Below the pieces are notes generated by a model that was not told the DNA's origin, made no database searches, and saw only the letters and a list, made by a program, of their open reading frames with translations. DNA of 64,000 nucleotides, from NCBI GenBank assembly GCA_964420075.1, contig CAYQRE010000001.1, forward strand, positions 133,675-197,674, written 5' to 3'. The position numbers and the translations under genes are program-made. Shown one piece after another: positions 2,950-45,066 of the stretch (within the stretch, counting starts at the first letter, position 1; each line of letters opens with the position of its first letter). The stretch comes from an uncultured Thermoanaerobaculia bacterium. Its GTDB lineage: Bacteria; Acidobacteriota; Thermoanaerobaculia; Multivoradales; SZUA-115.

Positions 2950-2954
2950 ACCCG

Positions 2955-4836: not shown

Positions 4837-4870
4837 CGAGCGACTATTCTAGCGAGCCACTTCGAACATC

Positions 4871-11356: not shown

Positions 11357-11365
11357 CGCCGCACC

Positions 11366-11530
11366 TCAGAAGATCGTGTAGATGAAGGGGGCGGACACCT
11401 GGCCGGCAGCGATCAGCAGGCCGAGCAGGCCGAGCACCAGGAGCAGCGGCACGATCCAATAGGCCTTGTGCTCACGGGCGAAGGCCAGCAGCTCCGCGAG
11501 CAGCCGGCCGCCGTGTCGTAACTTTCCCAT
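11366..11530 (-). CDS. DUF5989 / SxtK-like small membrane protein (54 aa; below ORF-track cutoff, translated by hand)
   Basis: Reverse strand ATG 11530..11528, TGA 11368..11366: MGKLRHGGRLLAELLAFAREHKAYWIVPLLLVLGLLGLLIAAGQVSAPFIYTIF; basic N-terminus, single TM helix and C-terminal APFIYTIF match DUF5989 proteins found downstream of NodU-type carbamoyltransferases. Confidence 0.6.
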   Translation of the reverse strand: MGKLRHGGRLLAELLAFAREHKAYWIVPLLLVLGLLGLLIAAGQVSAPFIYTIF

Positions 11531-18921: not shown

Positions 18922-21288
18922 TCAGGGCACGGCAGGCGGCGAGGCCTCACCGGCGAGCAGGCGGACGGCGGCGGCCAGCACCTCGTCTTCGCCACGTCGC
19001 AGGCCGGCGAGGGTCGGCGCCACCAGGAGGTCGGGCTGGATCCCCACGCGCTGCAGCTGCCGGCCGTCGGCGTGGCGCACCTGGTGGCCGCTGAAGCTCA
19101 CCACGATGCCCCCCGGCATCACCGCCTGCGTGACGTCACCGTTGGCGCCGTTGGTGGGCGTGCCGACGAAGACGACGTCCGGGCGGGCGGTCTCGAAGAA
19201 CAGGCAGCTGTGCTCGGACTGGCTGATCGCCCGTTCGTCGATCAGCACGGCCAGCTTGCCTGCGTACTGCCAGGGGCCGCCGCCCGGCACCTGCTGGACG
19301 AAATGGAGGTTGGCCTCCACGTCGCCTTCGGCAAGCAGGCCGAGGCTGCGGTCGAAGCGGGGGCCTGGGCGCGGTGCCGCCTGCAGGTAGGGGGTGAGCG
19401 ACCAGGCCGTACCGCGCGGGTAGCCGCGCAGGTCGAGGACGAGGCCCGGGGTCTGGCGCACCTGCTCCATCGCGGACGCGACCTCGGAGACTTCGAGCCG
19501 AGTGAGGTCGATGTAGCCAAGGCCGGAAGGCAGCACGGTGACCTTGGACAGGCGGTGGGCGTCGAGGAGCTCCTGGGCGGCAGGGCCAGGGGGCTGGCGG
19601 ACCGCTTCGAGGGTGTGGAGGCTGCCGTCGGCACGGCGGACCTCGAGCTTCGCCACGCTGCCCTTCTCGCCGGATAGCAGACGCCGCACCAGCACGAAGT
19701 CCCGCGCCTGCGGCGTCGAGTAGGCGAGGTAGGGCGCCAGGCGGGCGCTGCGGTCGGCGATCGTCTCGCCGTCGACGGCGACGATGACGTCCCCTACCGC
19801 CACCTCGCCGCCCGCGACGAGCGCGGGGTCGTAGATGCCGATCACCGCCAGCTCGCCGGCGATGAAGCGCACCTGCAGGCCGGGGCCGAGAAAACCACCG
19901 CTGAAGCGGTTGAAGACCGGGCTCAGAAAGAAGCCATGGGTGTCCTGCAGGCGGGCGACCAGGCCGGCGGCGGCCAGGGTGTAGGCCACGTCGTCGGCCG
20001 CCTCCGCGAAGCCAGGCATGGTCTCGACCAGGGCGTCCGCCCAGGTCCGGTCCATCAGCCCCTTGTCCGGGTAGAAGTGCTCGATGACGTTCCAGAAGCG
20101 GAAGAGGGCCAGCAGGCGCAGGGCCCGCGGCGGGTAGGGCTGGTCCTCGTAGCGGGCGTCGCGCTGGACGCGCGCCGGCGCCAGCGGTGGCGCCTGCCGC
20201 GCCAGGGGATGAGCGAGGAGCTCGAGGGCACGCGCCCGGGCGAGGTCCTCGCCGCCTGCGCCGCTAGCGGGCAGGATCGCCGAGGGCGCCAGGGTCGCGC
20301 TGCCGTCGCCGTTGACGAGCTCGGCGGTGCGCAGCGCCACCTTGACGCCCTCGCCGAGGTCGACGCCGGTCAGGGCGAGATCACTCGACCAGTCTCCTTC
20401 CTTGCCTTCAGAGACCAGGCTGGCGACCCCCGCCGCCTCGAGGCCGGCGAGGACGTCCCAGAACGGCGCCGCCTCCTGGTTGGCGAGCACCACCAGTGGC
20501 AGTGGGGCCGCCGTCGCCGCGGCCCGGCCCGGCAGCACGCGATGGTCCGCCGTCACGAACCCCGAGTAGTAGCCGGAGTAGCCGGCCACCTGGCTGGCGT
20601 AGCCGGAATGGAAGCGATGACGGAGCGCCGGCAAGACCACGTCGTGGGTGAGGAGGGCTGGTAGGTCCGTCTCGAGATTGGTGCGCAGATACGTCCCGGC
20701 CACGTACCAGCCGGCGCCATGAGCCGCCCGCAGGTCGAGCACCAGACCGGCCGCCCCTTGGGCAGCGGCGAAGGCGTCGGCGAAGAGCCCCCCGTCCCAG
20801 CGCCCGGCGGCGACCAGGCCATGGAAGTCCCGGGCGTCGATCCAGGCAACCCGGCCCGGCAGCCACTCGACCTGGGGCACCACTGGCGCGGCGGCCTCGG
20901 CGCCCGGTGGCTCCTCGTTCTCTGCCTCGCTGGGGTCGATCACGCGGCTCGGCGGGTCGCCCAGGAAGCTGAGCAGGTGTCCTACAGCGGCGCGGTACTC
21001 TGCCGTCGACGTCGCCGCCTCGACGCGCGGGATGGTGTCGAGCAGGGCCTGGTCCCAGTCGATCGGCCGCGTGGCGAGGTAGGGGTGGTAGAGCTTGGCC
21101 GTGCCCCACAGCCGAGCGACGGCAGCCAGCCGCTGGATGGCGAGCGGCGCGAGCGGTGCGTTGTCAGGGTCGCTAGGGCCGGAGTTGGGCGCGGCGGAGG
21201 CCGCCAGGGCAGCCACGGCGAGGACGGCCTGGGCGAGGACGCAGACAATGGCGGCGCCGCTCCTGGCACGGCGGTGCGATCCGAGCAT
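18922..21288 (-). CDS. S41-family C-terminal processing peptidase with PDZ domain (large, secreted)
   Basis: Start refined to ATG 21288 (AGGAGG RBS upstream; signal peptide MLGSHRRARSGAAIVCVLAQAVLAVAALAAS); PDZ (GDVIVAVDGE) and S41 catalytic region (AVLIDERAISQSEH...). Track ORF extends to 21594 but upstream part lacks RBS/signal logic. Confidence 0.72.
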   Translation of the reverse strand: MLGSHRRARSGAAIVCVLAQAVLAVAALAASAAPNSGPSDPDNAPLAPLAIQRLAAVARLWGTAKLYHPYLATRPIDWDQALLDTIPRVEAATSTAEYRAAVGHLLSFLGDPPSRVIDPSEAENEEPPGAEAAAPVVPQVEWLPGRVAWIDARDFHGLVAAGRWDGGLFADAFAAAQGAAGLVLDLRAAHGAGWYVAGTYLRTNLETDLPALLTHDVVLPALRHRFHSGYASQVAGYSGYYSGFVTADHRVLPGRAAATAAPLPLVVLANQEAAPFWDVLAGLEAAGVASLVSEGKEGDWSSDLALTGVDLGEGVKVALRTAELVNGDGSATLAPSAILPASGAGGEDLARARALELLAHPLARQAPPLAPARVQRDARYEDQPYPPRALRLLALFRFWNVIEHFYPDKGLMDRTWADALVETMPGFAEAADDVAYTLAAAGLVARLQDTHGFFLSPVFNRFSGGFLGPGLQVRFIAGELAVIGIYDPALVAGGEVAVGDVIVAVDGETIADRSARLAPYLAYSTPQARDFVLVRRLLSGEKGSVAKLEVRRADGSLHTLEAVRQPPGPAAQELLDAHRLSKVTVLPSGLGYIDLTRLEVSEVASAMEQVRQTPGLVLDLRGYPRGTAWSLTPYLQAAPRPGPRFDRSLGLLAEGDVEANLHFVQQVPGGGPWQYAGKLAVLIDERAISQSEHSCLFFETARPDVVFVGTPTNGANGDVTQAVMPGGIVVSFSGHQVRHADGRQLQRVGIQPDLLVAPTLAGLRRGEDEVLAAAVRLLAGEASPPAVP

Positions 21289-21451
21289 CGGGGGCCTCCT
21301 CACCGGGTTCTTGGCCGGCGGTGAAATGGACTGGCGAATCGTAGTCTTCCCGTTGCGCTCTGCCGCAAGCACAGGGCTTGCCCGCCGGCGAGAGAGCCCC
21401 CTGCGCGAGCGAGCTGCTAGAGTCCCTGCCGCATCCTTGAGGAGACCCCCC

Positions 21452-22273
21452 ATGCAGCGAAACTCCCGCCACACCGTGCTCGCCGCGCTCGTGCTGAGCG
21501 CTCTCGCCACCGTTCCGGCCGTCCAGGCCCAGCAATGCGCCGGCCGGGGCAACCGGCCCATGGTGTGCTCGATCGAGGTCCGTGACGTCACCAACTCCGG
21601 TCAGCCGCGGGCGATCGACCTCGAGCGCGGCATCGGCCTGCGCAAGGGCTGGGCCGTCGACCTCGACGTGGTGGCCTACGACCAGTACGGCAAGGTCTTT
21701 CCCACGGAGCGCCTGGCGGTGCGGATCGACGGCGAGGAGGACTGCCGCGGCCGGGTGGACGTCGACCAGAGTCACCGCCTCATCCACTTGAAAGGCCTCG
21801 AGCGCGGCAGCTGCACGCTGACGCTGTGGATCCCCGGCAACCTCAACCTCGAGTGGCCGCTACGGTTGGAGGTCGACCGCGAGCACCACGAGTACGGCCG
21901 TGGTCCCGGTGCCCAAAGTGTCGAGGAGGAGGTCGCGCGGCGTCTCTACCGCGCCATCCTCGACCGCGACGGCGAGCCGGCGAGCCTCGCCCGGGCGGCC
22001 GACGACATCCGGCGCGGCGGCCTCGAGCGGCTCGTCGACCAGATGCTGGCGAGCGACGAGTTCCGCCGCGAGCGCGCGAACCTGAGCCCGTCCGTCTTGC
22101 TGCAGAGCTTCTACCGCGGTCTGCTCGATCGTGACCCCGACCCCCAGGGCGTCAGGACCTACTGGGAAGACGTCCGCCGCCAGCGCTACGCCGAGGTGCT
22201 CCGCACCCTGCTCGCCTCACGCGAGTTCGCCGAGGTCTCCGGCTGGGACACCGGCCGCGGCCACCGGCGGTAG
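21452..22273 (+). CDS. Secreted protein with tandem DUF4214-like modules
   Basis: Start ATG 21452 (GAGGAG RBS), signal peptide MQRNSRHTVLAALVLSALATVPAVQA; two ...LYRAILDRDGEP.. / ..FYRGLLDRDPDPQGVRTYWED.. motifs typical of DUF4214. Confidence 0.5.
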   Translation: MQRNSRHTVLAALVLSALATVPAVQAQQCAGRGNRPMVCSIEVRDVTNSGQPRAIDLERGIGLRKGWAVDLDVVAYDQYGKVFPTERLAVRIDGEEDCRGRVDVDQSHRLIHLKGLERGSCTLTLWIPGNLNLEWPLRLEVDREHHEYGRGPGAQSVEEEVARRLYRAILDRDGEPASLARAADDIRRGGLERLVDQMLASDEFRRERANLSPSVLLQSFYRGLLDRDPDPQGVRTYWEDVRRQRYAEVLRTLLASREFAEVSGWDTGRGHRR

Positions 22274-24379: not shown

Positions 24380-25795
24380 TCAGCCGGCCTGGGCGCCCAG
24401 ACTGGCGGCGAGCGCGCGCAGGCGAGCGGCGAGCGGCCCGACCTCGTCCTCCCCCACGGTGCGGACGTCGAGCAGCAGCCGCTCGTCCTGCACACGGCCG
24501 ACCACCGCCGGCTCGCCCTGGCGCAGGCGAGCGGCGAGCTCGGCCGCCGGCAGGCCGCCGAGCGCCAGCTCGACGCCGAAGCTCGGCAGCGCCTCGGCCG
24601 GCAGCGAGCCACTGCCGGCCTGCGACTGGCAGGCGACCACCCGGCAGGGGAGGCCCGCGACACCCGCCAGGCGGCGCGCCAGGCGGCGGGCGCGGCCTTC
24701 GAGGTCCGCCGGCGACGCGGTCAGGCGGGCGAGGGCCGGCACCGAGCGGCAGGCGGCCGCCTCACCCGCCCGGTAGAGGCGCAGGGTCGCCTCGAGGGCG
24801 GCGTAGACCAGGCGGCCGGGGCGCAGGGCGCGGAACAGCGGCTGGCGCCGGCAGCGCTCGACGAGCTCACGGCGACCGAGGATCACCCCGCATTGGGGGC
24901 CACCGAGCAGCTTGTCGCCCGAGAAGCAAACGAGGTCGGCGCCGGCGGCGAGCGAGGCGCCCACCCAGGGCTCGGCGGGCAGGCCCTGGGCACCGAGGTC
25001 GACGAGGCAGCCGGAGCCCAGGTCGTGCACCACCGGCACGGCGTGCTCACGGCCGAGCGCCACCAGCTCCGCGAGCGCGACCTCGGCGGTGAAGCCCACG
25101 ATGCGGTAGTTCGAGGGGTGGACCTTGAGGATCATCGCCACCTCGCCGGCCGCCGCCTCCAAGGCTCGGCGGTAGTCGGCCGGGTGCGTGCGGTTGGTGG
25201 CGCCGACCTCGGCGAGGACGGCGCCGCTCTCGGCCATCACCTCGGGGATGCGGTAGGAGCCGCCGATCTCGACCAGCTCGCCGCGCGAGATCAGCACTCG
25301 CCGGCCGCGGGCCAGGGTGGCGAGGATCAGCAGCGTGGCAGCGGCGTTGTTGTTGACCACCGTCGCCGCCTCGGCGCCCGTCAGCTCGCAGAGCAGGGCC
25401 GCCACCCCCTCCTCGCGGCCGCCGCGGCCGCCGCTCGCGAGGTCCATCTCCAGGCGCTGGGCACCACCGGCCGTCGCGGCGAGAGCGGCGACCGCAGCCT
25501 CGGCGAGCGGGGCACGGCCGAGGTTGGTGTGGAGGACGACGCCGGTGGCGTTGATCACCCGGCGGTAGAAGGGCCGCGCCCGCTCGCTGAGCTGCGCCGC
25601 CAGCCGCTCGGCGATCGCCTGCGCCGTGAGCTCGTCAACGGCGAGCGCGCCGCCGCGGGCCCTCTGCCGCAAGCTCGCGAGCTCGGCGCGCAGCGCGGCC
25701 GTCACCTCGGCGAGGGAGAAGCGCTCGGCGAGCTCGCGCAAGGGCGCGCTCGCCAGCAGCCTCCCCGCCTGCGGCAGCTGGCGCATCGCCGCCAC
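24380..25795 (-). CDS. selA: L-seryl-tRNA(Sec) selenium transferase (selenocysteine synthase)
   Basis: 471 aa; N-terminal tRNA-binding-domain-like LPQAGRLL..., PLP-lysine motif FSGDKLLGGPQCG; length and motifs match bacterial SelA. Confidence 0.8.
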   Translation of the reverse strand: MAAMRQLPQAGRLLASAPLRELAERFSLAEVTAALRAELASLRQRARGGALAVDELTAQAIAERLAAQLSERARPFYRRVINATGVVLHTNLGRAPLAEAAVAALAATAGGAQRLEMDLASGGRGGREEGVAALLCELTGAEAATVVNNNAAATLLILATLARGRRVLISRGELVEIGGSYRIPEVMAESGAVLAEVGATNRTHPADYRRALEAAAGEVAMILKVHPSNYRIVGFTAEVALAELVALGREHAVPVVHDLGSGCLVDLGAQGLPAEPWVGASLAAGADLVCFSGDKLLGGPQCGVILGRRELVERCRRQPLFRALRPGRLVYAALEATLRLYRAGEAAACRSVPALARLTASPADLEGRARRLARRLAGVAGLPCRVVACQSQAGSGSLPAEALPSFGVELALGGLPAAELAARLRQGEPAVVGRVQDERLLLDVRTVGEDEVGPLAARLRALAASLGAQAG

Positions 25796-27335: not shown

Positions 27336-29111
27336 ATGCCCGCGCCGATCGCGGGCCAGGAGGAGTTGATGTCGACGCCCGTCCATCGTGCCGCTGCGCT
27401 CGCCGGCCCCGCCCGCTGCCGCCGCTGGGCGGCCGCGCTCATGCTCGTCGCCCTCGCCCCGGTGCCGCTCAGCGGCGCCACGTACAGCGTGGGGAGCGGC
27501 GCCGGTTGCACCCATGCCAACCTCGCCGCGGCGCTCGCCGCCGCGGATGCCAACCCGGGCGACGACACCATCCGCCTGCTCAGCAACAGCAGCCACCAGG
27601 GCCCCTTCCAGATCAGCACCCCGTTGGTCCTCGAGGGTGGCTACGCGACCTGCACGGCCACCACGCCCACCGGCAGCAGCACCCTCCTCGGTGCCACCGG
27701 CCAACGGGTGCTGACGATCTTCAACACCTCGACCAACCTCGTCGAGCTGCGGCGGCTGCTGCTCGTCGGCGGCAGCGTGACGGCCGACGGCGGCGGCGTC
27801 TACGTCCTCGGCACCGGCAGCGTGGTGCTGCGTGCCAGCACGGTGACGGGCAACCAATCGCAGGCCCGCGGCGGCGGCCTCTTCGTCCTCGGCACCGAGG
27901 GCACGTTCCTGCAACTGCTCGAGGGGACGACGGTGGCGAGCAACTCGGCGCAGAGCGGCGGCGGCCTCGGCTGCCTCGGCGCCGCCGAGATCACCATCGA
28001 TGCCACCTCGGCCGTCGCCAACAACAGCGTGACCGGCGACGGCGGCGGCGCCTATCTCACCAGCGCCTGCCGGTTGATCTCGTCCTCCGGCGGCTTCCTG
28101 GCCGGCATCGCCGGCAACCTGGCGAACGGCCGGGGTGGTGGCATCTACGCGGACAGCGGCTCGTCGGTCACCCTGCGGGCGAGCGACCGCGGCCTCGCCG
28201 ACCTCGGTGGCAACCAGGCAGGGGACGGCGGCGGCGTCTACGTCAGCGGCCTCGGTACCGCCTTCCGATCCTACGGCGGCTCACTCTCGAACAACACGGC
28301 CGGCGGGGCCGGCGGGGCCCTGTACGCGGCCGACAGTGCCACTGCCTACGTGACCACCGGCAACCCCGCCCTGGGCAACTGCCTGCAAGGGAACCTCTGC
28401 TCCCTCGTCGCCGGCAACCACGCGACCAACGCCGCCGCGATCCACGTCCGGGCCGCCGACGCCCTCGTCTTCGGCACCTACGTCCGCAACAACGTCGCCG
28501 GGCAGTCGGCCAGTGTGGGCATCCTGGCGCAAGGGGGAAGCCTCGCCTTCGACTCCTCGCTGCTCATCGCCAACCAGGGCCTCGAGGTGCTCGCCGTCGA
28601 CGGCGCCGGGAGCCAGCTGACGCTCGCCAATGTCACCCTGGCAGACAACCCCGGCAACGGCCAGGGCGTGATCGGCGCCGGCAGCGGCAACATGGTGGTG
28701 CGGGTCCTGTCGAGCGTCGTCTCGCAGGGCGGCGCCCTCTTCGCCCGCTACCCCTCCGGCTTCGCACCGCAGGTCGACTGCCTGCTCGCCGCCCAGGCCG
28801 CTCTGGTCGCCAGCCTGCCGCCGGCGGCCGTCGAGCGCGCCGTCCAGGTTGGCGACCCGCGCTTCGTCCACCCGGCGTCGGGCAACTACCACCTCGGCCT
28901 GGGCTCGCCGGCGATCGATGCCTGCGACGAGAGCCAGTACTCGAACCTCGGCCTGGATTTCGAGCTCGAAGCGCGGACCTACGACGACCCCGACGCACCC
29001 GAGCAGATGCCGAACGGCTGGCGCGACCTCGGGGCCGACGAGGTACAGCCGCTGTTTGCCGACGGCTTCGAGTCCGGCACGACGAGCGCCTGGACGCTCA
29101 CCGTGCCGTAG
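27336..29111 (+). CDS. Secreted right-handed beta-helix repeat protein with choice-of-anchor-Q-like N-terminal region (alt. start ATG 27369)
   Basis: Signal peptide, ATYSVGSGAGCTHANLAAALAAADANPGDDTIRL N-terminal signature, many G-G-G/NxxG beta-helix rungs, C-terminal tail ...LFADGFESGTTSAWTLTVP shared with the 45067..47346 protein. Confidence 0.6.
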   Translation: MPAPIAGQEELMSTPVHRAAALAGPARCRRWAAALMLVALAPVPLSGATYSVGSGAGCTHANLAAALAAADANPGDDTIRLLSNSSHQGPFQISTPLVLEGGYATCTATTPTGSSTLLGATGQRVLTIFNTSTNLVELRRLLLVGGSVTADGGGVYVLGTGSVVLRASTVTGNQSQARGGGLFVLGTEGTFLQLLEGTTVASNSAQSGGGLGCLGAAEITIDATSAVANNSVTGDGGGAYLTSACRLISSSGGFLAGIAGNLANGRGGGIYADSGSSVTLRASDRGLADLGGNQAGDGGGVYVSGLGTAFRSYGGSLSNNTAGGAGGALYAADSATAYVTTGNPALGNCLQGNLCSLVAGNHATNAAAIHVRAADALVFGTYVRNNVAGQSASVGILAQGGSLAFDSSLLIANQGLEVLAVDGAGSQLTLANVTLADNPGNGQGVIGAGSGNMVVRVLSSVVSQGGALFARYPSGFAPQVDCLLAAQAALVASLPPAAVERAVQVGDPRFVHPASGNYHLGLGSPAIDACDESQYSNLGLDFELEARTYDDPDAPEQMPNGWRDLGADEVQPLFADGFESGTTSAWTLTVP

Positions 29112-29135: not shown

Positions 29136-29876
29136 ATGAGACCTTCGTGCCGCCGGTCCGCCCTCGCTGCGCTCGCCCTCGCTGCCGCCTTGCAGGCCGG
29201 TGCCGGCCCCGATCCCTACGCCGGCTCCCGGGCCTCGATGGTCGAGGCGGTGAAGGTGGACACCGCCTTCCACGGCGGCTTCGTGGGCCGCGACGAGCTG
29301 TCGCCGCGGCTGCTCGCGGCCCTCGGCAGCGTGCCGCGCCACGAGTTCGTGCCGGCGGCCGAGGTCGAGACCGCCTACGAGAACCGGGCGATCCAGCTCG
29401 GCGGTGGCCGCAGCCTGCCGGCGCCCTACGTGACGGCGATCCTCGCCGACCTGCTCGACATCGGCGGCAATGCCCGGGTGCTGGAGGTCGGCACGGGCTG
29501 CGGCTACGAGGCGGCGCTGCTCTCCTCGCTCGCCGCGCGCGTGCTCACCCTCGACCCTGACCCAAACGTCGTCGCCGCCGCCCGCAAGCGCCTCGCCCGC
29601 CTGGGCTACAGCAACGTGACGGTGCGCCAGGGCGACCTCGAGACCGGCTGGCAGGAGGAGGGCATCCTCTTCGACGCCATCCTGGTCAGCAACGCCGTCG
29701 ACGCCATCCCCCAGCTGCTGCTCACCCAGCTACGGCCGGGGGGCAACCTCGTGGTACCCGTCCACGGCGAGGGTGGCAAGCCCTACCTCACCGTGGTGCA
29801 CAAGAACGACAAGGGAAGGCTCAAGCCCAAGCCGCGGCCCTTGCTGCAGATCGCCGTCGACCCCCTGCCCCGCTGA
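29136..29876 (+). CDS. pcm: Protein-L-isoaspartate O-methyltransferase (secreted/periplasmic form with signal peptide)
   Basis: VLEVGTGCGYEAALLS SAM motif and overall PIMT architecture; TAGACT -10-like element 8 nt upstream of ATG. Confidence 0.8.
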   Translation: MRPSCRRSALAALALAAALQAGAGPDPYAGSRASMVEAVKVDTAFHGGFVGRDELSPRLLAALGSVPRHEFVPAAEVETAYENRAIQLGGGRSLPAPYVTAILADLLDIGGNARVLEVGTGCGYEAALLSSLAARVLTLDPDPNVVAAARKRLARLGYSNVTVRQGDLETGWQEEGILFDAILVSNAVDAIPQLLLTQLRPGGNLVVPVHGEGGKPYLTVVHKNDKGRLKPKPRPLLQIAVDPLPR

Positions 29877-29978
29877 GCGCCGGCACGCCGCCGGGCCGCG
29901 GGCTGCTAGGCTAGCGTCCGCACTCGTGCAAGACCCAAAGAACGGCGCCGGCTTGGCGGGCGAGGAGGACGCCGGAGG

Positions 29979-30575
29979 GTGGAGCTCACGGTGGTCGATA
30001 GGCTGCGGCACGTGATCGCCGGCGATCGCGAGGCGGCCGCCTGGCTCTACGACTGTTTTGCGACGAGCCTCTTCCAGCGCCTCGGCCGCCGCTACGGCTA
30101 CCTGACGCTCGAGGAGCGCGAGGACGTCCTGCAGGACACCTTCGTCCACGCCCTCCGCCACGACGGCCGCCTGCTCGCCTCGTTTCTCGAGCGCGCGGCC
30201 GGGACCGCGCCCGAGCCCGGCGACCTCGAGCGCTTCCTCTGGGATCAGGCCTGCGGTCTGGTCGCCAACCGACGCCGCTCCCGCCTGGCCCGCCGCTGGG
30301 TGCCGCTCGGCGACGAGGACGAGGCCGAACCCGACCCGGTGTCGGCCGAGCAGCGGCTGATCGACCGCGATTCCCTGCGCAAGCTGGATCACTGTCTACG
30401 CGACCGGGGCCAGCGCGTCTATCTCTACTTTCAGTTGCGCTATGCCGACGGCCTCGCGCCGGAGGAGATCGTCGCCGCCACGGGCTGGTCCCGCAAGGCG
30501 ACCTACAAGCTGAGGCAGGCCCTCAACCGCGCCGTCGACGCCTGCCTGGCGCTGCTGCGACGGCTCCCCGGCTGA
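29979..30575 (+). CDS. RNA polymerase sigma-70 factor, ECF subfamily
   Basis: GTG start with GGAGG RBS; region 2 (DVLQDTFVHALRH) and region 4 HTH (RVYLYFQLRYADGLAPEEIVAATGWSRKATYKLRQAL). Confidence 0.7.
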   Translation: MELTVVDRLRHVIAGDREAAAWLYDCFATSLFQRLGRRYGYLTLEEREDVLQDTFVHALRHDGRLLASFLERAAGTAPEPGDLERFLWDQACGLVANRRRSRLARRWVPLGDEDEAEPDPVSAEQRLIDRDSLRKLDHCLRDRGQRVYLYFQLRYADGLAPEEIVAATGWSRKATYKLRQALNRAVDACLALLRRLPG

Positions 30576-30579
30576 CGGC

Positions 30580-33477
30580 ATGGGGAGCGCGGGGGCAGGG
30601 CCGGCCCGGGCCGGCCGTCGCGGGCTCGGCGGGGCGCCGGGGGTGGTCGCGCTGGTGGCCGCTGCCCTCGCCGCGGTGGTCGCAGGCGGCCGGGCGAGCG
30701 AGCGGGCACCGGCCGGGCTCGCGGTGACGGTGCGCGGCCACGGTGAGGTGGCCCTCGACGGCGTCGACCTTCCGCCGGTCCCTCGCTTCCTCGGCCGTTC
30801 GCCACGGCCGGGCCTCTGCGTGGCAGCGCCTCCCCGCCTCGACACCAGCCTCTGGCAGGCCGAGCTCTGGCTGAGCGGGCCCGGGCGGGCCGACTCGTAC
30901 CGCCAGCGGGTGAGCCAGCCCGAGCGCCTCGCCTCGACGCTCTGTTTCGACGCCAGCTTCGCGGACCAGACGACGCCGGGCCGGGCCTTGCTCTGCGGCG
31001 AGGTCACCGACGCCTACGACGGCGGCCGCTTTTCCCTCGGCTGCCAGCCGGTCGAGCTCGGCGGCCCGACGGCGTCGCTCACCCGCCTGCAGGCCACGAC
31101 GGCGGACCTCCTCAACGGCTTCACGGACGAGGCCTATGCCGCCTGGTCTCGGCGCCTCACGGCCCTCGCCCAGCGCGCGGCTGCCGAGGGCCTGCCGCTG
31201 TTTTCAGCCCAGCTCCGGCTGATCGCCGTCCACCAAGGCCTGCTTACCGGCAAGCCGGCCGACCTCGCCGAGGGCGCCCGGCAGCTCGCCGCGATCCCTT
31301 CCTGGGTGAAGCAGCCGGCCGCCAGCGCGGTCGCCGCCCAGGTCGCCTACCACCGGGCGCTCCTCGCCCAGGCCCAGGACAGCGACCTCGAAGGAGCCTG
31401 GTTCGAGCTCGAGGGGGCCTACGACCTCTACCGGCGGACGGCCGACCCCTTCTGGATCACCGTGCCGATGAAGCAGGCCGAGATCCTCGCCGCAGTGGGT
31501 GACGGCCTCGAGGCCGCCGAGAGGCTCGCAGCCGCCCTCGGCGAGTGCGCCCAGGCCGGCTGCGATCCCCAGCTGCAATCCGCTGCCGAGCAGGAGCTGG
31601 GCTGGATCGAGCTCTTGGAGCCCGACGCCGGGCCGCCGGAGCTCGCCGCCAGTCGCCGCCACCTGGAACAGGCCCTCGGCCTGAGCAGCGTCGCGGCCGA
31701 TCGCCTCGAGGCGCTCAACGTGCGGCTGAGCCTCGCCTATCTGACCCTGCGCCAGGGGGGCGACCCGCAGGCCGAGCTGGGGACCATCGAGAGCGGCCTC
31801 GCCGCGCTCCCGGCGAGTGGCCGCGGCAGGCTGCTGCGGGCCTGGGCCGAGCTTCTCGGTGGCATCGCAGCCTCCGCCCAGGGCCGACCGCGAGCGGCCC
31901 TCGCCACCTGCGCGCCGCTCGCCGACAACCCGGTCCCACGCCTCGCCGCCTGGGCGGCGAGCTGCGCCGCCGAGGCCGAACGGCGGCGCGGCGACCTCGA
32001 CCGTGCCGCCGGCTGGTTCGACCGTGCCCTCGACCTGCACGCGCGCCAGGGGCTCGACAACCTCGGCCAGCGCCTGCCCCTGGGGCAAGGGCAGGTGACG
32101 GACGACTTCCTCGCCGCGGCCCGCCTCGCCGTCGAGCGCGGCGAGCCGGCGAAGGCCTGGGCCCTGCTCGACCGCCTCGACGCCTTCGCCTCGCGACGGC
32201 CGGCAGCGCGCCCCTGCGGCCCCCGACCCGCCGCCGAGCGCCAGCTCGACGCCAGCCTGGAAGCCGATCTCGAGGCCCTCGACAGGCCGGCCGCGGGCGT
32301 TCGGCGAGGCCAGATCGAGCCCCTGCGGCGGGCCCTGCGCGAGCGCCTGCAAGACCGCCTGCGCCGGCGTCAGCCCTGCGGCGAAGGCGGCGCGGCGGCA
32401 CCGGCCGGCCTCGCCGCTCCGTCGCGAGCCGACCTGCGGGCCTTCGCCCTCGCCGACGAAGTGATCGTGCTGTGGCGCCATGCCGACGCAACGGTGGAGC
32501 TGGTGCGCCGCACGGCGCTCTCGCGGCGGACGCTGCGCCAGGCCCTCGCCGAACTCGAGACGGCCGCCGAGAAGGGCGAGGCCACCAGCTGGCGCCGGCT
32601 GGCGGCGCCGCTCGGCGCCGCCCTGGCCCCCCCGGCGGAGGCTGCTGGCGAACCTCGTCATGGCTGGCTCTATGCCCTCCACGGCCTGCTGCAGCGCGTG
32701 CCGTTGTTCGCCCTGCCGATGCCGGACGAGCCAGGCGCCACGCCGCAGCCGCGCTGGCTCATCGCGCGGGCTGCCCTCGCTCTCGAGCCCACGGCACCGG
32801 CCCTGGGACCGACGGCGCGCGAGCGCGCGAGCCAGCCCCTCTTCGTGGTCGATCCGCGTCGCGACCTGCCCGCCGGCCGGGCCCTCCTCGCCGACTACCG
32901 GCGGCTGTTTCCCCAGGCCGATGTCCTGGCCGGCGGCGAGGCCCGCCGCGCCGCCGTGCTCGCTCGCCTCGCCGCCGCGAGCCTCTTCCACCTCGACGCC
33001 CACGGCAGCTATCTCGGCGCCTTCCCCGACCTCTCGCGCCTCGAGCTCGCGGACGGCGGCCTCTCCCTCGGCCAGTTGCGCGAGCTGGCCCCAGCCCCCT
33101 GGCTGGTCAACCTCTCGTCGTGCCGCTCCGGGGCTTGGCCGGCCACGGCGGACCGCGGCCACTACGGCATCGCGGGCCTCTTCGCCGCCAACGGCAGCTC
33201 CTGGGTGGTGGCGAGCCGCGGCGACCTCGACGACCGGATGGCCGGCGAGTTCAACCGCGAGCTCTACACCGCCCTGACCGCGGGCAGCCCCCCAGCCGTG
33301 GCGTTCCAGAAGGCCCTGCTCCAAGTCGCCCAGCGCTATCCACCGGCGGACTGGGGCGGCATGCTGCTGCTCCATCGGCCGGCCTCCCCGCCAGAGGGGG
33401 AGGTCGAGCCCGCTCGCGACTCCCAGGCAGACAGAGAAGACGGTCTCGGCCCCGGCCGCGACCGCCAAGGAGAGTGA
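30580..33477 (+). CDS. CHAT-domain (caspase-like) protease with long N-terminal TPR-like helical region
   Basis: 965 aa; C-terminal CHAT signature with His (SLFHLDAHGSY) and Cys (WLVNLSSCRSG) dyad; starts 4 nt after ECF sigma stop. Confidence 0.7.
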   Translation: MGSAGAGPARAGRRGLGGAPGVVALVAAALAAVVAGGRASERAPAGLAVTVRGHGEVALDGVDLPPVPRFLGRSPRPGLCVAAPPRLDTSLWQAELWLSGPGRADSYRQRVSQPERLASTLCFDASFADQTTPGRALLCGEVTDAYDGGRFSLGCQPVELGGPTASLTRLQATTADLLNGFTDEAYAAWSRRLTALAQRAAAEGLPLFSAQLRLIAVHQGLLTGKPADLAEGARQLAAIPSWVKQPAASAVAAQVAYHRALLAQAQDSDLEGAWFELEGAYDLYRRTADPFWITVPMKQAEILAAVGDGLEAAERLAAALGECAQAGCDPQLQSAAEQELGWIELLEPDAGPPELAASRRHLEQALGLSSVAADRLEALNVRLSLAYLTLRQGGDPQAELGTIESGLAALPASGRGRLLRAWAELLGGIAASAQGRPRAALATCAPLADNPVPRLAAWAASCAAEAERRRGDLDRAAGWFDRALDLHARQGLDNLGQRLPLGQGQVTDDFLAAARLAVERGEPAKAWALLDRLDAFASRRPAARPCGPRPAAERQLDASLEADLEALDRPAAGVRRGQIEPLRRALRERLQDRLRRRQPCGEGGAAAPAGLAAPSRADLRAFALADEVIVLWRHADATVELVRRTALSRRTLRQALAELETAAEKGEATSWRRLAAPLGAALAPPAEAAGEPRHGWLYALHGLLQRVPLFALPMPDEPGATPQPRWLIARAALALEPTAPALGPTARERASQPLFVVDPRRDLPAGRALLADYRRLFPQADVLAGGEARRAAVLARLAAASLFHLDAHGSYLGAFPDLSRLELADGGLSLGQLRELAPAPWLVNLSSCRSGAWPATADRGHYGIAGLFAANGSSWVVASRGDLDDRMAGEFNRELYTALTAGSPPAVAFQKALLQVAQRYPPADWGGMLLLHRPASPPEGEVEPARDSQADREDGLGPGRDRQGE

Positions 33478-33482
33478 GGACC

Positions 33483-34406
33483 GTGGACCGACCCGGCAAC
33501 GACGCTGCGCCGATCTCCCGCGAGACGTGGCTGCGAGCCCTTGCCCTGGCGGCGTACGGCGCGCACGACCACGGTGTCGACGCGGCCGGGCCCGACCTCG
33601 GTGACGGCCCGCGCCGCGAGGAGCTCGCCGCCTACCGCCGTGGTGAGCTCGGGGCGGCCGCGCGCAACCGCATCGAGGCACAGCTGGTCGCCAGCCGGTC
33701 AGCGCGCCAGCTGCTCGTCGCGCTGGCCACCAGCGAGGCAGCCGCTCCCTCGCCGCGGGTCCGGCGGGCGGTCCTCGCCGCGGCGGCCGGCCAGTCGCCG
33801 GCAGCCCCGCGGCGGGTTGGCCTCCGGGCCCTCCGCGGCCTGGCGCTCGCCGCCTCGCTGGTCTTGGCGGTGGCGAGCGGCTGGTGGTGGCTGAGCCACC
33901 TGCAGGGCCACGGCCCCCTGCCGGACTTCACCGTCGAGGCGCACGGCATCGCCACCCACCGCGGTGGCAGCGAGGGCGCGGTGGACGGCGCCGGGGAGCC
34001 GGCCCTGGTGCGGCCCGAGACCGAGCTGGAGATCTTCGCCAGCGCCGAGCGTGCCGTCCGTGGGGTCGAGGGTGGGCTCTACGTGCTGCGTGGCGGCGGC
34101 CTCGAACGCCTGCCTCCGGGGCCGCGCCTCCGGGTCGAAGAAGAGCGCGGGGCCCTGCAGCTCACCGCCCGCGCGGCCGACCTCCTGGGCGCCGAGCTGC
34201 AGCCCGGCGAGCATCACGTCTGGCTCGCGCTTGGCTGGCAAGGCACCCTGCCGGCGAGGGTCGAGCTCGCTCCCGGGGAGGACCCGGCCACGGCCCTCCG
34301 GGCCCCGGACCGTCGCGTCGTACCCGTCCGGCTGCGGCTGCTGGCCGCGCCGCCGATGGGCGAGAACCCGGGGCCAGCAGGCCCCGCTGCCGAGGAGGAA
34401 CCGTGA
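33483..34406 (+). CDS. Putative anti-sigma factor (single-pass membrane protein)
   Basis: GTG start 5 nt after CHAT stop; N-terminal ...RREELAAYRRGELGAAARNRIEAQL... anti-sigma-domain-like motif, one TM helix (LRGLALAASLVLAVASGWWWL), periplasmic C-terminus. Upstream part of track ORF 31545.. is artefact. Confidence 0.5.
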   Translation: MDRPGNDAAPISRETWLRALALAAYGAHDHGVDAAGPDLGDGPRREELAAYRRGELGAAARNRIEAQLVASRSARQLLVALATSEAAAPSPRVRRAVLAAAAGQSPAAPRRVGLRALRGLALAASLVLAVASGWWWLSHLQGHGPLPDFTVEAHGIATHRGGSEGAVDGAGEPALVRPETELEIFASAERAVRGVEGGLYVLRGGGLERLPPGPRLRVEEERGALQLTARAADLLGAELQPGEHHVWLALGWQGTLPARVELAPGEDPATALRAPDRRVVPVRLRLLAAPPMGENPGPAGPAAEEEP

Positions 34407-36163
34407 GCTTCGAGCCTCTGCAACGCTGCCGCCGCCACACCCGCTCCCTTGGGCTGGCGATCACCGTTCTTACCGCCTGGCTCGCCGCCTCCTCGGCCGC
34501 CGCCAAGGAGGTCCGCTGGTACCTCGACACCACGGGCCGCGACCCACAATGGCCGGGCAGCTTTGCCGCCGCCTGCGGCCGCCTCGGCACCTACCACTTC
34601 GCCATCGACACCGGCGGCCCGGCGCCCTGGCCGGGCGCCGCCGAGGGCAAGCTCAACGGCCAGGAGGAGCCACCGGGGTACGCTCGCCCCACCGCCACCG
34701 GCGAGCTGCCGGAGCCGGCCGCCGCCTTCGCCTGGCTGCCCGCTGCCGAGCGGCCGATCTGCCTCGGCGACGGCGGCCGCTGCGACGGCAGCCGGCCCTG
34801 GCTCGCCGTCCTCGACTGGGGCAATGAGCACGGCCGCAGCGTCGGTCGGCTGGCCTGGGAGATCGCTAACCCCCCGGAGGCGGCGGCCGCGGTCGACGTG
34901 CTGCTCTTTCCCCTCGACCGTACCCGCCGCGAGCTCGCCATCTACTCGCAGCGCGGTGCCACCGACTTCCACGTCCTCAACCGCCTCTGTCAGCTGGCGG
35001 CGGCGGTGGACGCCAAGCGCCTGCCACCGCCCCTCGCCCTCAACCTGAGCTTCGGCCGCGCCGCCCTGCCGGGCGATCCAGCTGAGAGCGGCGGCTGTCC
35101 GGGCCAGAGCCTCGGCTGCCAGATCCACCAGGTGCTGGCCCACCTCGCCGCCCGGCCGGCCGACGGCGGCGCCGGTGTGATGGTGGTGGCGGCGGCCGGC
35201 AACCACCGCCGGCTGCTCTTCCCGGCGAGCCTGCCGCAGGTGGTGGCGACGGGGATGCTCGACAGCACCGCTCTCGGCGCCAGCGCCGGCGTGGTCCCGG
35301 CCTGGGAAACACCGAGCAGCCGCAGCAAGGCCGCCTGGTCCCTGATGCCAGGGGCTGGTCTCTGCCTGCCGCAGGGCGTCGATGGTCAGGGCAGCGAGCC
35401 CGAGCCCCTGCCAGCCGGCTCGTCCTACGCCGCCAGCCTGTTGACCGGCTGGCTCGCCGGCCCCCTGCTGGCCCGCGAGCCGCTCGAGCCCGGCTCCTAC
35501 TTCTGGCCCGAGCTGCGCTGGCAGGGCAGCCGGCCGACGGCCGTGCTGGTCGCTGGCTCGGCCCGCCTGGAGAGCATGAACAGCCGGGTCAACGACCAGC
35601 TGGCGGCCGTCTTCGCGGGATGCGGCTGGCAGCCAGCCGGGGCCCTCGAAAGCAACGAGGGGCGGCTCGCCACGGGTCTGTTGGGTGCCATCCTCGACCC
35701 CACGAGCCGGCTGCCGAGCCCCGTCGACCTCGCCGCGGCACCGAGCGAAGGCCCCACCCAGCCGACCCCGGACTCGAACCCGTGCGTGCCCTGTGTGAGC
35801 GTGCTCAAGCCGCCGCCGAACGGCCTCCTCGCCCGCCTCGGCACCGGCACTGGGACGAGCGACGGCCAGCCGCCGGCCGCCGGCACCACCCTGGAGGTCG
35901 CGGCCTGGGCCTCCCGCCCCTTCGGCGCGGGAGTTCGCGTGCTCGGCCTTTATCTGCGCAGCGGCAACCGCTTCCAACCACTCGCCCTGACGGCGAGTGA
36001 GCTCGACGCCCTCACCGAGGGCAACGTCAAGCGACTGGAGATCCAGCTCGACGCCCTCGCCGCAGCACCGAGCGGCCAGCTGTCCCTGGTCTACCTGCTG
36101 CGCTCGAGCGATCGCCGGGCCGAGAAGTTCTGGACCTCGGTGCCGATCCTGCCCCTGCCGTAG
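34403..36163 (+). CDS. S8-family subtilisin-like serine peptidase
   Basis: GTG start with GAGGAGG RBS, overlapping anti-sigma stop; catalytic triad blocks HFAIDTGG (Asp), WGNEHGRSVG (His), GSSYAASLLTG (Ser), plus VVAAAGNH. Confidence 0.65.
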   Translation: MSFEPLQRCRRHTRSLGLAITVLTAWLAASSAAAKEVRWYLDTTGRDPQWPGSFAAACGRLGTYHFAIDTGGPAPWPGAAEGKLNGQEEPPGYARPTATGELPEPAAAFAWLPAAERPICLGDGGRCDGSRPWLAVLDWGNEHGRSVGRLAWEIANPPEAAAAVDVLLFPLDRTRRELAIYSQRGATDFHVLNRLCQLAAAVDAKRLPPPLALNLSFGRAALPGDPAESGGCPGQSLGCQIHQVLAHLAARPADGGAGVMVVAAAGNHRRLLFPASLPQVVATGMLDSTALGASAGVVPAWETPSSRSKAAWSLMPGAGLCLPQGVDGQGSEPEPLPAGSSYAASLLTGWLAGPLLAREPLEPGSYFWPELRWQGSRPTAVLVAGSARLESMNSRVNDQLAAVFAGCGWQPAGALESNEGRLATGLLGAILDPTSRLPSPVDLAAAPSEGPTQPTPDSNPCVPCVSVLKPPPNGLLARLGTGTGTSDGQPPAAGTTLEVAAWASRPFGAGVRVLGLYLRSGNRFQPLALTASELDALTEGNVKRLEIQLDALAAAPSGQLSLVYLLRSSDRRAEKFWTSVPILPLP

Positions 36164-44136: not shown

Positions 44137-44922
44137 TCAAGGCAGCGACCGCACGTACCCGCCGTCGACCGTCACCGCCTGGCCGGTGACGTAGGACGCC
44201 TCGGGCGAGGCGAGAAACCCCACCACCGCGCCGATCTCCTCGGCGCGGGCCAGGCGGCCGGCGGGGATCTGTGCCGCCCAGCCGGCCACCACCTCAGCAG
44301 GGCTCTCTCCCGAACGCGCTGAACGTGCCGCAGCCAGCTCCTCTTGGCGCTCGGTCAAGGTGTAGCCCGGCAACACCGCGTTGACCGTAATGCCTTCCGC
44401 CGCTACCTCTTGGGAGAGGGTCTTCAAGTAGCCGAGCACGGCCGGGCGCAGAGCGTTCGAGAGCGCCAGGCCGGGGATCGGCTGCCGCGCCGAGACGGAG
44501 TTGATGGCGAGGATGCGGCCCCAGCGGCGGGCCCGCATGCCGGGGAGCACCAGGGCACAGAGACGGGGCACGAAGAGGAACGCCAGGGGGATCGCCGCCT
44601 GCCAGTCCGCCTCGGTGAGCTCGAGGGCCGGCTTGGCGGGCGGGCCGCCGCCGTTGGCGACCAGGATGTCGATCGGCCCCAGCCGCTCCTCGACGGCCTC
44701 GACCAGCGTTTGGATGGCGGCCAGCTCCCGCACGTCCGAGGCCAGCGTCACCACCTCGGCACCCCGCGTCGCCAGGGCCTGGCGGGCCTGCGCCAGCTTC
44801 TCCTCGCTGCGGCTCGCGAGCGCGATCCGCGCCCCCCGCTCGGCGAGCGCCGCCGCCGCCGCGAAGCCGAGGCCGGAGCTGCCTCCCGTGATCAAGGCCA
44901 CCTTTCCCGTCAGGCTCGCCAT
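44137..44922 (-). CDS. SDR-family oxidoreductase
   Basis: VALITGGSSGLGFA Rossmann motif, NGGG, Y-x3-K. Confidence 0.8.
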   Translation of the reverse strand: MASLTGKVALITGGSSGLGFAAAAALAERGARIALASRSEEKLAQARQALATRGAEVVTLASDVRELAAIQTLVEAVEERLGPIDILVANGGGPPAKPALELTEADWQAAIPLAFLFVPRLCALVLPGMRARRWGRILAINSVSARQPIPGLALSNALRPAVLGYLKTLSQEVAAEGITVNAVLPGYTLTERQEELAAARSARSGESPAEVVAGWAAQIPAGRLARAEEIGAVVGFLASPEASYVTGQAVTVDGGYVRSLP

Positions 44923-45009
44923 CGCTGTCTCCCTTCGAGCTCGTCTGCCGGCGAGGATAGCAAGGGCCCGGGGGTCGGAGCGTGGCGTTGCCGGGCTGGC
45001 ATTGGCGAT

Positions 45010-45038
45010 TTGCCACGCATCTATGACCCGCCTAGAAT
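45010..45038 (+). promoter_or_regulatory. Sigma-70-like promoter TTGCCA-17-TAGAAT upstream of the large secreted protein gene
   Basis: TTGCCA 45010-45015, 17-nt spacer, TAGAAT 45033-45038; about 28 nt upstream of ATG 45067. Confidence 0.45.
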
Positions 45039-45066
45039 GCTCGCTTCAGCTCTGGGAGAGACCCCG

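Follow-up and report, generated by a model that had tools for sequence, protein, structure and literature searches.

The window analysed here is a stretch of 64,000 nucleotides (nt) from an uncultured Thermoanaerobaculia bacterium of the phylum Acidobacteriota (GenBank assembly GCA_964420075.1, contig CAYQRE010000001.1, positions 133,675 to 197,674). At positions 29979-36163 it contains four co-directional genes that code for a divergent sigma factor of the extracytoplasmic function (ECF) type, a protease combining a tetratricopeptide repeat (TPR)-like solenoid with a CHAT domain, a single-pass anti-sigma factor, and a derived subtilisin-like protease of family S8. The four proteins are very probably parts of a single sigma-regulatory pathway. 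With moderate confidence we further infer that the four genes form a self-contained ECF signalling cassette, in which the sigma factor would be switched on by cleavage of the anti-sigma factor outside the membrane. A sequence-only reading of this DNA had placed both proteases in the regulatory pathway of the sigma factor. This assignment is supported by the invariant adjacency of the sigma and CHAT genes, by gene fusions between the two, and by the structural match of the CHAT protein to DdvA, an anti-sigma factor from Myxococcus xanthus.

The pattern of codon-position GC content identifies the four open reading frames (ORFs) as real coding sequences. In the window, which has a GC content of about 72%, all four have a GC content at third codon positions (GC3) of 0.89-0.91 and a low one at second positions (GC2), and the frame plot changes frame precisely at their borders. 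The junctions look like those expected of a translationally coupled operon. The stop codon TGA of the sigma gene is followed after 4 nt by the ATG of the CHAT gene. The TGA of the CHAT gene is followed after 5 nt by the GTG of the anti-sigma gene, with a Shine-Dalgarno sequence AAGGAG 10 nt upstream, and the anti-sigma stop codon overlaps with the start codon of the S8-like gene in the sequence GTGA. No terminator-like hairpin was found inside the four-gene block. The coordinates and the tight linkage claimed in the sequence-only reading were thus correct, and the gene order recurs in related DNA. The positions of all features are listed below.

Features of the four-gene block and of related fused genes (positions in the window unless a locus is named).
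Feature	Position	Strand	Basis or detail
Divergent ECF-type sigma factor, 198 aa (very likely)	29979-30575	+	family-level profile support
TPR-CHAT caspase-like protease, 965 aa, predicted membrane-anchored and periplasmic	30580-33477	+	Pfam CHAT, AlphaFold2 model
Predicted single-pass anti-sigma factor, 307 aa	33483-34406	+	family profiles, AlphaFold2 model
S8 (subtilisin-like) serine protease, 586 aa, predicted secreted, highly derived	34403-36163	+	family profile, motifs
N-terminal hydrophobic anchor/signal segment of the CHAT protein, aa 20-36	30637-30687	+	
Predicted CHAT dyad, His808 codon	33001-33003	+	motif DAHG
Predicted CHAT dyad, Cys848 codon	33121-33123	+	motif NLSSC
Anti-sigma transmembrane helix, aa 114-140	33822-33902	+	model helix, pLDDT 87-92
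Anti-sigma Arg160 codon	33960-33962	+	only invariant residue across the family
Predicted S8 catalytic stretch	34814-35425	+	Asp138 34814-34816, His143 34829-34831
S8 motif NLSFGR		+	residues 214-219
S8 oxyanion Asn267	35201-35203	+	
S8 Ser341	35423-35425	+	
Fused sigma-TPR-CHAT ORFs	L023:2075-5476, L032:458-3838, L014:4331-end, L015:1491-end, L021:7189-end, L031:2253-end		

The CHAT protein is the only one of the four window proteins that passes a curated threshold. Searches with single sequences against Pfam, NCBIfam, and the PDB left the identities of the sigma factor, the anti-sigma factor, and the S8-like protease unsupported; family profiles were therefore needed for these three. In the end, all four identities proposed from the sequence were borne out, that of the CHAT protein by Pfam and those of the others by family profiles, motifs or models.

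The match of the second gene product to the Pfam family CHAT (PF12770) comprises residues 673-929 and has an E-value of 1.9e-22 and a score of 80.5 bits, compared to a cut-off of 24. His808 and Cys848 are invariant in 15 homologues at 34-42% sequence identity, which confirms the earlier view of an intact dyad; six further Cys residues in the N-terminal and middle regions are invariant in the same 15 sequences. The family-wide conservation of the dyad and of the flanking CHAT motifs argues for retained catalysis. An AlphaFold2 model of the protein (mean predicted local distance difference test (pLDDT) of 72, predicted template modelling score of 0.62) consists of an anchor helix (residues 20-36), a beta-sandwich (49-161), about 22 paired helices that form a solenoid (165-595), and the alpha/beta fold of the CHAT domain (619-932). 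Among all PDB chains, the best fold match is DdvA (8rot_A, E 7.1e-11, 801 columns, 17% identity), followed by Csx29 of the Craspase and by separase, all three over the full length; partial matches include TPR proteins such as LGN and MalT. According to the model, the N-terminal part of the protein is a TPR-like alpha-solenoid; a Pfam TPR match was not obtained for the window protein. A sequence-profile search of the PDB sequences with the CHAT family found no CHAT protein.

Nearly all homologues of the CHAT protein start with a lipoprotein signal peptide and a lipobox of the form L-[AS]-[AG]-C. The window copy contains VVAGG at the position of the lipobox (for example LAAGC in homologues) and is the only member seen without the lipobox Cys; it is therefore probably held by an uncleaved signal segment or by one processed by signal peptidase I. 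The hydrophobic segment is preceded by only about 20 residues, and no upstream extension of the ORF is possible. Taken together, these sequence features strongly support a TPR-CHAT protein that is anchored in the membrane, by a lipid in most homologues, and that faces the periplasm.

The 198-residue product of the first gene has no Pfam sigma match. It matches 13 NCBIfam sigma-factor families, most of them ECF, with scores far below the cut-offs (best TIGR02989, E 1.9e-5; TIGR02937, E 4.6e-4, 19.9 bits compared to a cut-off of 42.9), and SigW in the PDB (E 0.0018). A profile of 30 family members yielded nine PDB matches at E <= 0.1, and every one of them is a sigma factor; they include 6dxo (E 3.4e-4) and E. 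coli sigmaE (1or7, E 1.4e-3), and two of the alignments are full-length and colinear. Colinearity with RpoE across 161 columns was also found with hhalign. Individual members match Sigma70_r4_2 (10 of 30), Sigma70_ECF (6 of 30), and Sigma70_r2 (4 of 30), all below threshold. The protein comprises the regions sigma2 and sigma4 and contains three invariant Cys residues, Cys92, Cys139, and Cys189, the latter two in sigma4. Furthermore, a member of an anti-sigma family is encoded in the same operon. On these grounds it is very likely that the protein is a strongly divergent homologue of ECF-type sigma factors, and a cytoplasmic location is strongly supported.

For the third gene product, an exhaustive HMMER search yielded 182 representative relatives, which all have 260-330 residues and match over residues 40-290. 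The NCBIfam model NF052375 ("antisigma") matches 100 of 140 scanned members (best E 1.7e-13), and PRK13920 ("putative anti-sigmaE") matches 56 of them. Taken alone, the window protein reaches only an E-value of 0.0067 and has no Pfam match. Among PDB sequences, the family profile aligns best with RslA, an anti-sigma factor from M. tuberculosis (3hug_B, E 0.0038), and the match lies on the sigma-binding helix. The AlphaFold2 model, which is based on 85 sequences (mean pLDDT 83.5), contains helices at residues 45-101, followed by a transmembrane (TM) helix (114-140) and by a beta-sandwich that is predicted with very high confidence (149-286); Arg-rich residues precede the TM helix on its N-terminal, cytoplasmic side. 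Both the anti-sigma homology and the membrane topology expected of this product were thus found. The model strongly supports a single-pass protein with a sigma-binding helical domain predicted inside the cell and an immunoglobulin (Ig)-like domain in the periplasm. Judged by the family profiles, the N-terminal domain is a helical, non-zinc anti-sigma domain (ASD) homologous to known ASDs: the positions of the zinc ligands H-x3-C-x2-C are of the type E-x3-V-x2-R and contain neither Cys nor His, and only 4 of the 140 members match zf-HC2. Fold searches with the model gave only generic Ig-like matches; ASD structures were not recovered, because the Ig-like matches dominate, and no link to CarboxypepD_reg was found.

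Arg160 is the only residue that is invariant across all aligned members of the anti-sigma family (140 of 140). It is part of the motif G-L-A-[ED]-x-R-[SG], about 20 residues past the TM helix, and is followed by a loop of variable length that is rich in Ala, Pro, and Gly and has a low pLDDT. CHAT enzymes of the separase type cleave after Arg. Arg160 is accordingly a candidate for a scissile or recognition site.

The fourth gene product, of 586 residues, has no match to PF00082. Its family profile yielded 23 PDB matches, all of them subtilases (best E 2.5e-4), and the alignment extends from the oxyanion Asn through the Ser of the GTSMA type. Among 11 homologues at about 30% identity, the motifs V[LVI]D[WF]...HGxS, NMSFGR, AAAGN, and G[ST]S[YF]A are kept, and 10 of the 11 share the residues D138 (VLDW), H143 (HGxS), N267 (AAAGN), and S341 (GSSYA). 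The NLSFGR of the window protein (NMSFGR in the family) is the equivalent of INMSLGG in subtilisin. Asp and His are only five residues apart (Asp-x4-His), compared to about 32 in subtilisin. By its motifs, the protein thus appears to represent a derived S8-like family with the triad residues in subtilase order. PF00082 matches, weak or faint, were obtained for homologues from two cassettes (L051 and L053). A stand-alone relative with 32% identity (P0009) also matches PF00082 weakly, and NCBI names it an S8/S53 peptidase. A 287-residue protein encoded upstream of this relative was considered as a relative of the anti-sigma factor and proved to be unrelated (E 1.0); there is hence no evidence for an anti-sigma/S8 pair outside the cassette. 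A tblastn search of plasmids with the S8-like protein gave no match. At its N-terminus the protein has a signal peptide, and its C-terminal extension carries a conserved PC[VIL]PC motif. Its export via a Sec signal peptide is strongly supported by the sequence, and both proteases are predicted to be extracytoplasmic.

A word-indexed search retrieved only four relatives of the CHAT protein, and a scan of species-representative genomes with the CHAT alignment retrieved a single Thermoanaerobaculia metagenome-assembled genome (MAG). The alignments of the anti-sigma family are too diverse for scans with back-translated patterns. The sigma alignment was used instead to scan metagenomes, and the resulting 40 loci were annotated with hidden Markov models built for the four families. 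In all 36 related contigs with enough downstream DNA, some of which are near-duplicates, the CHAT gene directly follows the sigma gene. The anti-sigma gene follows the CHAT gene in 14 of the 19 contigs that continue, and the S8-like gene follows in each of the 13 contigs that continue past the anti-sigma gene. A further locus, in which the end of the sigma gene is missing (L055), also contains a CHAT gene followed by an anti-sigma gene. The cassette proteins of different contigs are only 30-55% identical and the flanks are unrelated, yet the order is the same; genes flanking the four-gene unit are common only to near-identical contigs. The order sigma-CHAT-antisigma-S8 is therefore far beyond chance, and the expectation that it would be found in related genomes was confirmed. 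Three distant anti-sigma relatives (E 1e-13, 3e-9, and 3e-7; contigs with 66-71% GC) were looked up blind, and all of them lie in the same cassette, so that the anti-sigma family appears to be roughly co-extensive with it. The named relatives of the cassette belong to MAGs of Thermoanaerobaculia and Polarisedimenticolaceae (Acidobacteriota), which makes a host range within the Acidobacteriota likely. The presence of lipoproteins and of a TonB neighbour points to diderm hosts, and the cassette appears to be common in uncultured high-GC bacteria of soil and sediment.

Five loci lack the anti-sigma gene after the CHAT gene. Because they are nested within the cassette clade in the CHAT tree, they are best explained as secondary losses. 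Four of them (L001, L008, L024, and L027) share a separate arrangement, type B, to which L003 and L026, both truncated, also belong. In type B, the sigma factor is N-terminally extended, and an AMP-binding enzyme gene overlaps the CHAT stop codon. Upstream, two polytopic GT-C/YfhO-like membrane proteins of about 780 residues and a divergent Ser/Thr kinase of 1126 residues with TPRs are encoded. The membrane proteins were considered as hidden anti-sigma factors and rejected on account of their polytopic GT-C/YfhO-like nature. Type B may represent a switch to kinase-based sigma control. In the fifth locus (L016), a frameshift or stop interrupts the CHAT gene (623-3247), and neither an anti-sigma nor an S8-like gene follows; it looks like a decaying copy of the cassette. 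An apparent counter-example to the sigma-CHAT adjacency (L011) was discarded. It is 99% identical to positions 29706-30682 of the window and diverges completely after 976 nt (977-1645 of the contig), and is probably an assembly chimera or marks a breakpoint in a related strain. Two further loci differ in their gene content. In L022, the CHAT and anti-sigma genes are separated by a gene for an M23 peptidase (4050-5351, minus strand); the cassette thus tolerates interruption at this junction. In L002, a second, conventional ECF sigma gene (11115-11411; Pfam Sigma70_ECF, E 1.8e-27) follows the S8-like gene with an overlap of 4 nt.

In five independent, codon-divergent contigs (L014, L015, L021, L023, and L031/L032), there is no stop codon between the sigma and CHAT genes. 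The fused ORFs, which code for 1126-1133 residues where complete, have the architecture sigma-TM-TPR-CHAT. At the joint, the C-terminus of sigma4 (...NEAVERCLDRLGLRAG) is followed by a hydrophobic segment with a lipobox (WLxxLxxxALLLxSSAC), the counterpart of residues 20-36 of the window CHAT protein, and then by the beta-sandwich, TPR, and CHAT parts. Where the contig continues (L023 and L032), the anti-sigma gene is still located downstream of the fused ORF, and in L023 the S8-like gene is next. Following the Rosetta-stone argument, the fusion means that the sigma factor and the CHAT protein act together. It also implies that the hydrophobic segment spans the membrane, with the sigma factor inside and the CHAT domain outside. 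The fusions keep the lipobox Cys although it is internal, and the question is raised whether it may be processed by Lgt and LspA.

In analogy to DdvA, the following mechanism is proposed. An envelope or extracellular cue would be sensed by the beta-sandwich/TPR region and would activate the CHAT protease. This protease, acting jointly with the S8-like protease or downstream of it, would then cleave the anti-sigma factor at site 1 in its periplasmic part; the prime candidate location is the loop beginning at the invariant Arg160. A housekeeping site-2 protease of the RseP type, encoded elsewhere, would subsequently cut the TM helix of the anti-sigma factor, and cytoplasmic proteases would clear the remaining fragment and thus set the sigma factor free. 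The role of the S8-like protease is the least certain step; it might activate the CHAT protease, make a second site-1 cut, or trim products. The proposal corresponds to the DdvA model with protease and substrate on separate polypeptides. A bolder version of it, which we consider speculative and rather unlikely, would make the subtilase and the CHAT protease consecutive steps of a cascade, in which one activates the other and the anti-sigma factor is cut after Arg160, with the sigma factor of the fused subclade being the cytoplasmic N-terminal part of a CHAT lipoprotein precursor. If this were true, maturation of the internal lipobox, or cleavage by the CHAT or S8-like protease followed by RseP, would free a sigma factor tethered to a signal peptide. 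Sigma release would then be coupled directly to the export and processing of the sigma factor's own protease, a mode of sigma control so far undescribed.

Several observations weigh against control by anti-sigma cleavage. The five loci described above keep the sigma and CHAT genes without the genes for the anti-sigma factor and the S8-like protease, so that the link between CHAT and sigma does not strictly depend on the other two genes in cis. The sigma factor and the S8-like protein are recognised only at scores under the curated thresholds, and one S8 homologue (L002, 9430-11118) contains a Thr instead of a Ser at the position of the predicted nucleophile (PAGSTYAA); the copy may be inactive, or the Thr may be a sequencing variant. 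By inspection, no shared ECF-type -35/-10 promoter that would point to autoregulation was found upstream of the sigma genes, and no gene for RseP is located near the cassette. Finally, the site-1 role of DdvA itself is only proposed, and a mutation of its dyad is expected to have no effect in unperturbed cells (PMC11506125).

Alternatively, the sigma and anti-sigma factors might be an ordinary pair that senses something else, and the CHAT and S8-like proteins might be co-transcribed outputs rather than regulators, such as proteases secreted for use in nutrition, in antagonism or in remodelling of the envelope. Genes in ECF operons are indeed often targets of the sigma factor, subtilases belong to the conserved context of ECF26 and ECF33, which have normal zinc anti-sigma factors, and the ECF reclassification study emphasises that context alone does not distinguish regulators from targets. 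We nevertheless regard such a cargo role as unlikely. Fusions of sigma and CHAT in a single ORF are hard to explain for cargo, and the adjacency of the two genes persists where the anti-sigma and S8-like genes were lost. Moreover, the CHAT gene is located between the sigma and anti-sigma genes, its product is anchored in the membrane or by a lipid and not freely secreted, and the closest structural relative of this product, DdvA, is an anti-sigma factor. Less probable still is a model in which the site-1 cut is left to the S8-like protein alone and the TPR-CHAT protein, without proteolytic function, serves as a sensor or scaffold by binding either a ligand or the Ig-like domain of the anti-sigma factor. 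This would agree with the resting, "incomplete" state of the CHAT site in DdvA, whose role in cleavage is a proposed one, with the nature of TPR solenoids as binding modules, and with serine proteases of families S8, S1, and S41 being the usual periplasmic site-1 enzymes (DegS, Prc/CtpA). Such a division of labour leaves the family-wide invariance of His808, Cys848, and the flanking CHAT motifs unexplained, and type B loci retain the CHAT gene and lose the S8-like gene.

Two other possibilities concern the target of the proteases and the output of the system. Degradation of the sigma factor itself, as the gene context of the actinobacterial group ECF54 has been interpreted, is topologically implausible and has only a very slight chance of being correct: both proteases are predicted to be extracytoplasmic by their lipobox or signal anchor, signal peptide, and invariant Cys residues, the sigma factor is cytoplasmic, and a bona fide member of an anti-sigma family is present. 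The cassette might also be a master switch for an anti-phage defence regulon elsewhere in the genome. Concerning only the output, this idea is compatible with control by anti-sigma cleavage, and it is suggested by the control of a defence island by DdvS/DdvA and by the frequent occurrence of CHAT proteases in defence systems. We consider it improbable, since no PADLOC defence-system model matches any of the four proteins, and since the neighbours are housekeeping genes in the window, differ in every locus, and include no defence genes in the flanks that were seen. The analogies to Craspase and to gasdermin-activating proteases that had been drawn from the sequence are remote.

The region upstream of the sigma genes offers few clues. 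An alignment revealed no shared motif; neither sigma-70 consensus promoters nor meaningful terminators were found; and the ECF54 promoter motif GTATCAG-Xn-CTCC has no match in the window and was not seen upstream of related sigma genes. In many loci (L040, L038, L041, L049, L039, L042, L033, L032, L023, L021, L015, L031, L045, L047, and L030), a TANNNT hexamer such as TAGATT, TACGCT or TACAAT is located 6-10 nt before the sigma start. This hexamer resembles the -10 element of a housekeeping promoter for a leaderless mRNA more than it resembles an autoregulated promoter of the ECF type. The subclade of the window, L002, L019, and L020 instead shares GCTA(G/T)(G/C)CTAG...GTG(T)CGCAAGACCC about 50-70 nt upstream (region 29905-29936 in the window).

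Directly upstream of the cassette, the window contains co-directional genes for a beta-helix/PMP-repeat-like protein of 591 residues (27336-29111, plus strand) and for a protein-L-isoaspartate O-methyltransferase (29136-29876, plus strand); neither is conserved beside the cassette elsewhere. The same applies to the gene for an S41-family peptidase of 890 residues about 8 kb upstream (18922-21594, minus strand). S41 proteases (Prc/CtpA) are site-1 proteases for some anti-sigma factors. A gene for SelA, selenocysteine synthase (24380-25795, minus strand, E 2e-133), indicates that the host uses selenoproteins. Further downstream, a protein of 1000 residues (44344-47346, plus strand) has a middle domain that resembles hydrazine synthase alpha (PF18582, E 1.4e-9). 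The HlyD, ABC, and MacB-FtsX genes downstream of the cassette were examined as potential members of the module as well; since they are not conserved at other loci, they were excluded.

ECF sigma factors constitute one of the major signalling systems of bacteria, and the way in which the signal passes the membrane is known for few groups only. In the canonical systems of regulated intramembrane proteolysis, the anti-sigma factor is cleaved by pairs of proteases, as in RseA/DegS/RseP, RsiW/PrsW/RasP, and FecR-type/Prc-CtpA/RseP. The cassette shares with them a single-pass anti-sigma factor with a sigma-binding part inside and a sensory part outside, as well as a periplasmic site-1 cut that is presumed to license site-2 cleavage. 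In contrast to the unlinked housekeeping enzymes of the S1, S41 or PrsW type, the candidate site-1 enzymes here, a Cys protease with a caspase fold and a derived subtilase, are products of the sigma operon itself. The architecture and dyad of the TPR-CHAT protein resemble those of Csx29, which acts with Cas7-11 in the Craspase, and of separase. Csx29 and separase are located in the cytoplasm or the nucleus, and their activation depends on RNA-guided complexes or on securin/cyclin, whereas the CHAT protein of the cassette is predicted to be periplasmic and membrane-anchored and is not accompanied by CRISPR genes. The fused subclade, with its sigma factor, TM segment, and large extracytoplasmic domain, is reminiscent of ECF52 and ECF53 and of the sigma/anti-sigma hybrids of the IutY type; ECF groups with C-terminal TM extensions are likewise thought to need proteolytic release. 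Here, however, the extension is a TPR-CHAT protease that follows a lipobox-like motif, a separate anti-sigma gene is still located downstream, and the window copy is unfused.

The gene content is closest to that of ECF54, which was defined in Actinobacteria (Huang et al. 2015) and retained in a later classification (Casas-Pastor et al. 2021, supplement) with 100% actinobacterial members. Its context comprises a carboxypeptidase-regulatory-like protein (CarboxypepD_reg, +1), a subtilase (+2/-1), and TPR-CHAT (+3/-2), without a recognised anti-sigma factor, and the group is listed in a review as "regulated by proteolysis" on gene context alone. Judged by this description, the systems have in common a sigma factor beside a subtilase, a TPR-CHAT protein, and a protein of the beta-sandwich type. 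Some ECF54 subgroups have two Cys residues in sigma4, the region that carries Cys139 and Cys189 in the family described here. By the same description the cassette is set apart by its order of sigma, CHAT, anti-sigma, and S8 with a recognisable anti-sigma factor. Its beta-sandwich protein is this anti-sigma factor with an Ig-like fold and not a CarboxypepD_reg domain, its named relatives come from MAGs of Acidobacteriota, and the window lacks the ECF54 promoter motif. The cassette offers a plausible explanation for the puzzle of a sigma group with a subtilase and a CHAT protein and "no anti-sigma": by analogy, the small beta-sandwich protein beside the ECF54 sigma factor may be an unrecognised anti-sigma factor.

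The closest mechanistic parallel is DdvS/DdvA from M. xanthus, which consists of an ECF sigma factor and a TM anti-sigma factor with a periplasmic TPR-CHAT part (PDB 8ROT) and controls a CBASS-CRISPR island (Bernal-Bernal et al. 2024, PMC11506125). For the CHAT domain of DdvA, a function as site-1 protease that acts in trans and ahead of RseP has been proposed, and DdvA-like fusions were found by the authors only in Myxococcota and one Comamonas species (PMC11506125). As in this system, an ECF sigma factor is paired with a periplasmic TPR-CHAT module bearing a His-Cys dyad, and with a single-pass anti-sigma factor whose cytoplasmic sigma-binding domain is small and helical. DdvA combines a zinc ASD, a TM helix, TPR, and CHAT in one chain, whereas the TPR-CHAT protein of the cassette is separate and lacks an ASD, and the anti-sigma factor is encoded by the next gene, with an Ig-like periplasmic domain and without zinc ligands. 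Furthermore, the cassette adds an S8-like protease and an N-terminal beta-sandwich, its CHAT protein has no detectable sequence similarity to DdvA, and it is not located beside CBASS or CRISPR genes. By analogy, the cassette would work like DdvA, and it falls outside the definition of DdvA-like proteins, which requires a zinc ASD and TPR-CHAT on one polypeptide.

The claim of novelty can thus be upheld in part. A context of subtilase and TPR-CHAT (ECF54, 2015 and 2021) and an anti-sigma factor with TPR-CHAT (DdvA, 2024) were already known, whereas a literature search found no description of a split sigma-CHAT-antisigma-S8 cassette. New compared to DdvA and ECF54 are the split architecture, the gene order, the non-zinc Ig-like anti-sigma factor with Arg160, the compacted S8 protease, and the sigma-CHAT fusions. 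In addition, two protein families that are missed by curated models have been defined, namely compact S8 proteases with Asp-x4-His and anti-sigma factors of the type ASD-TM-Ig. The idea that CHAT acts as a site-1 protease is hard to test in DdvA, where protease and substrate are one chain; the cassette separates them naturally. Since it also provides a candidate site in Arg160 and fusions that fix the topology, the site-1 hypothesis is directly testable in vitro. The main value of the cassette is that of a naturally "split" test case for the CHAT-mediated site-1 proteolysis of anti-sigma factors.

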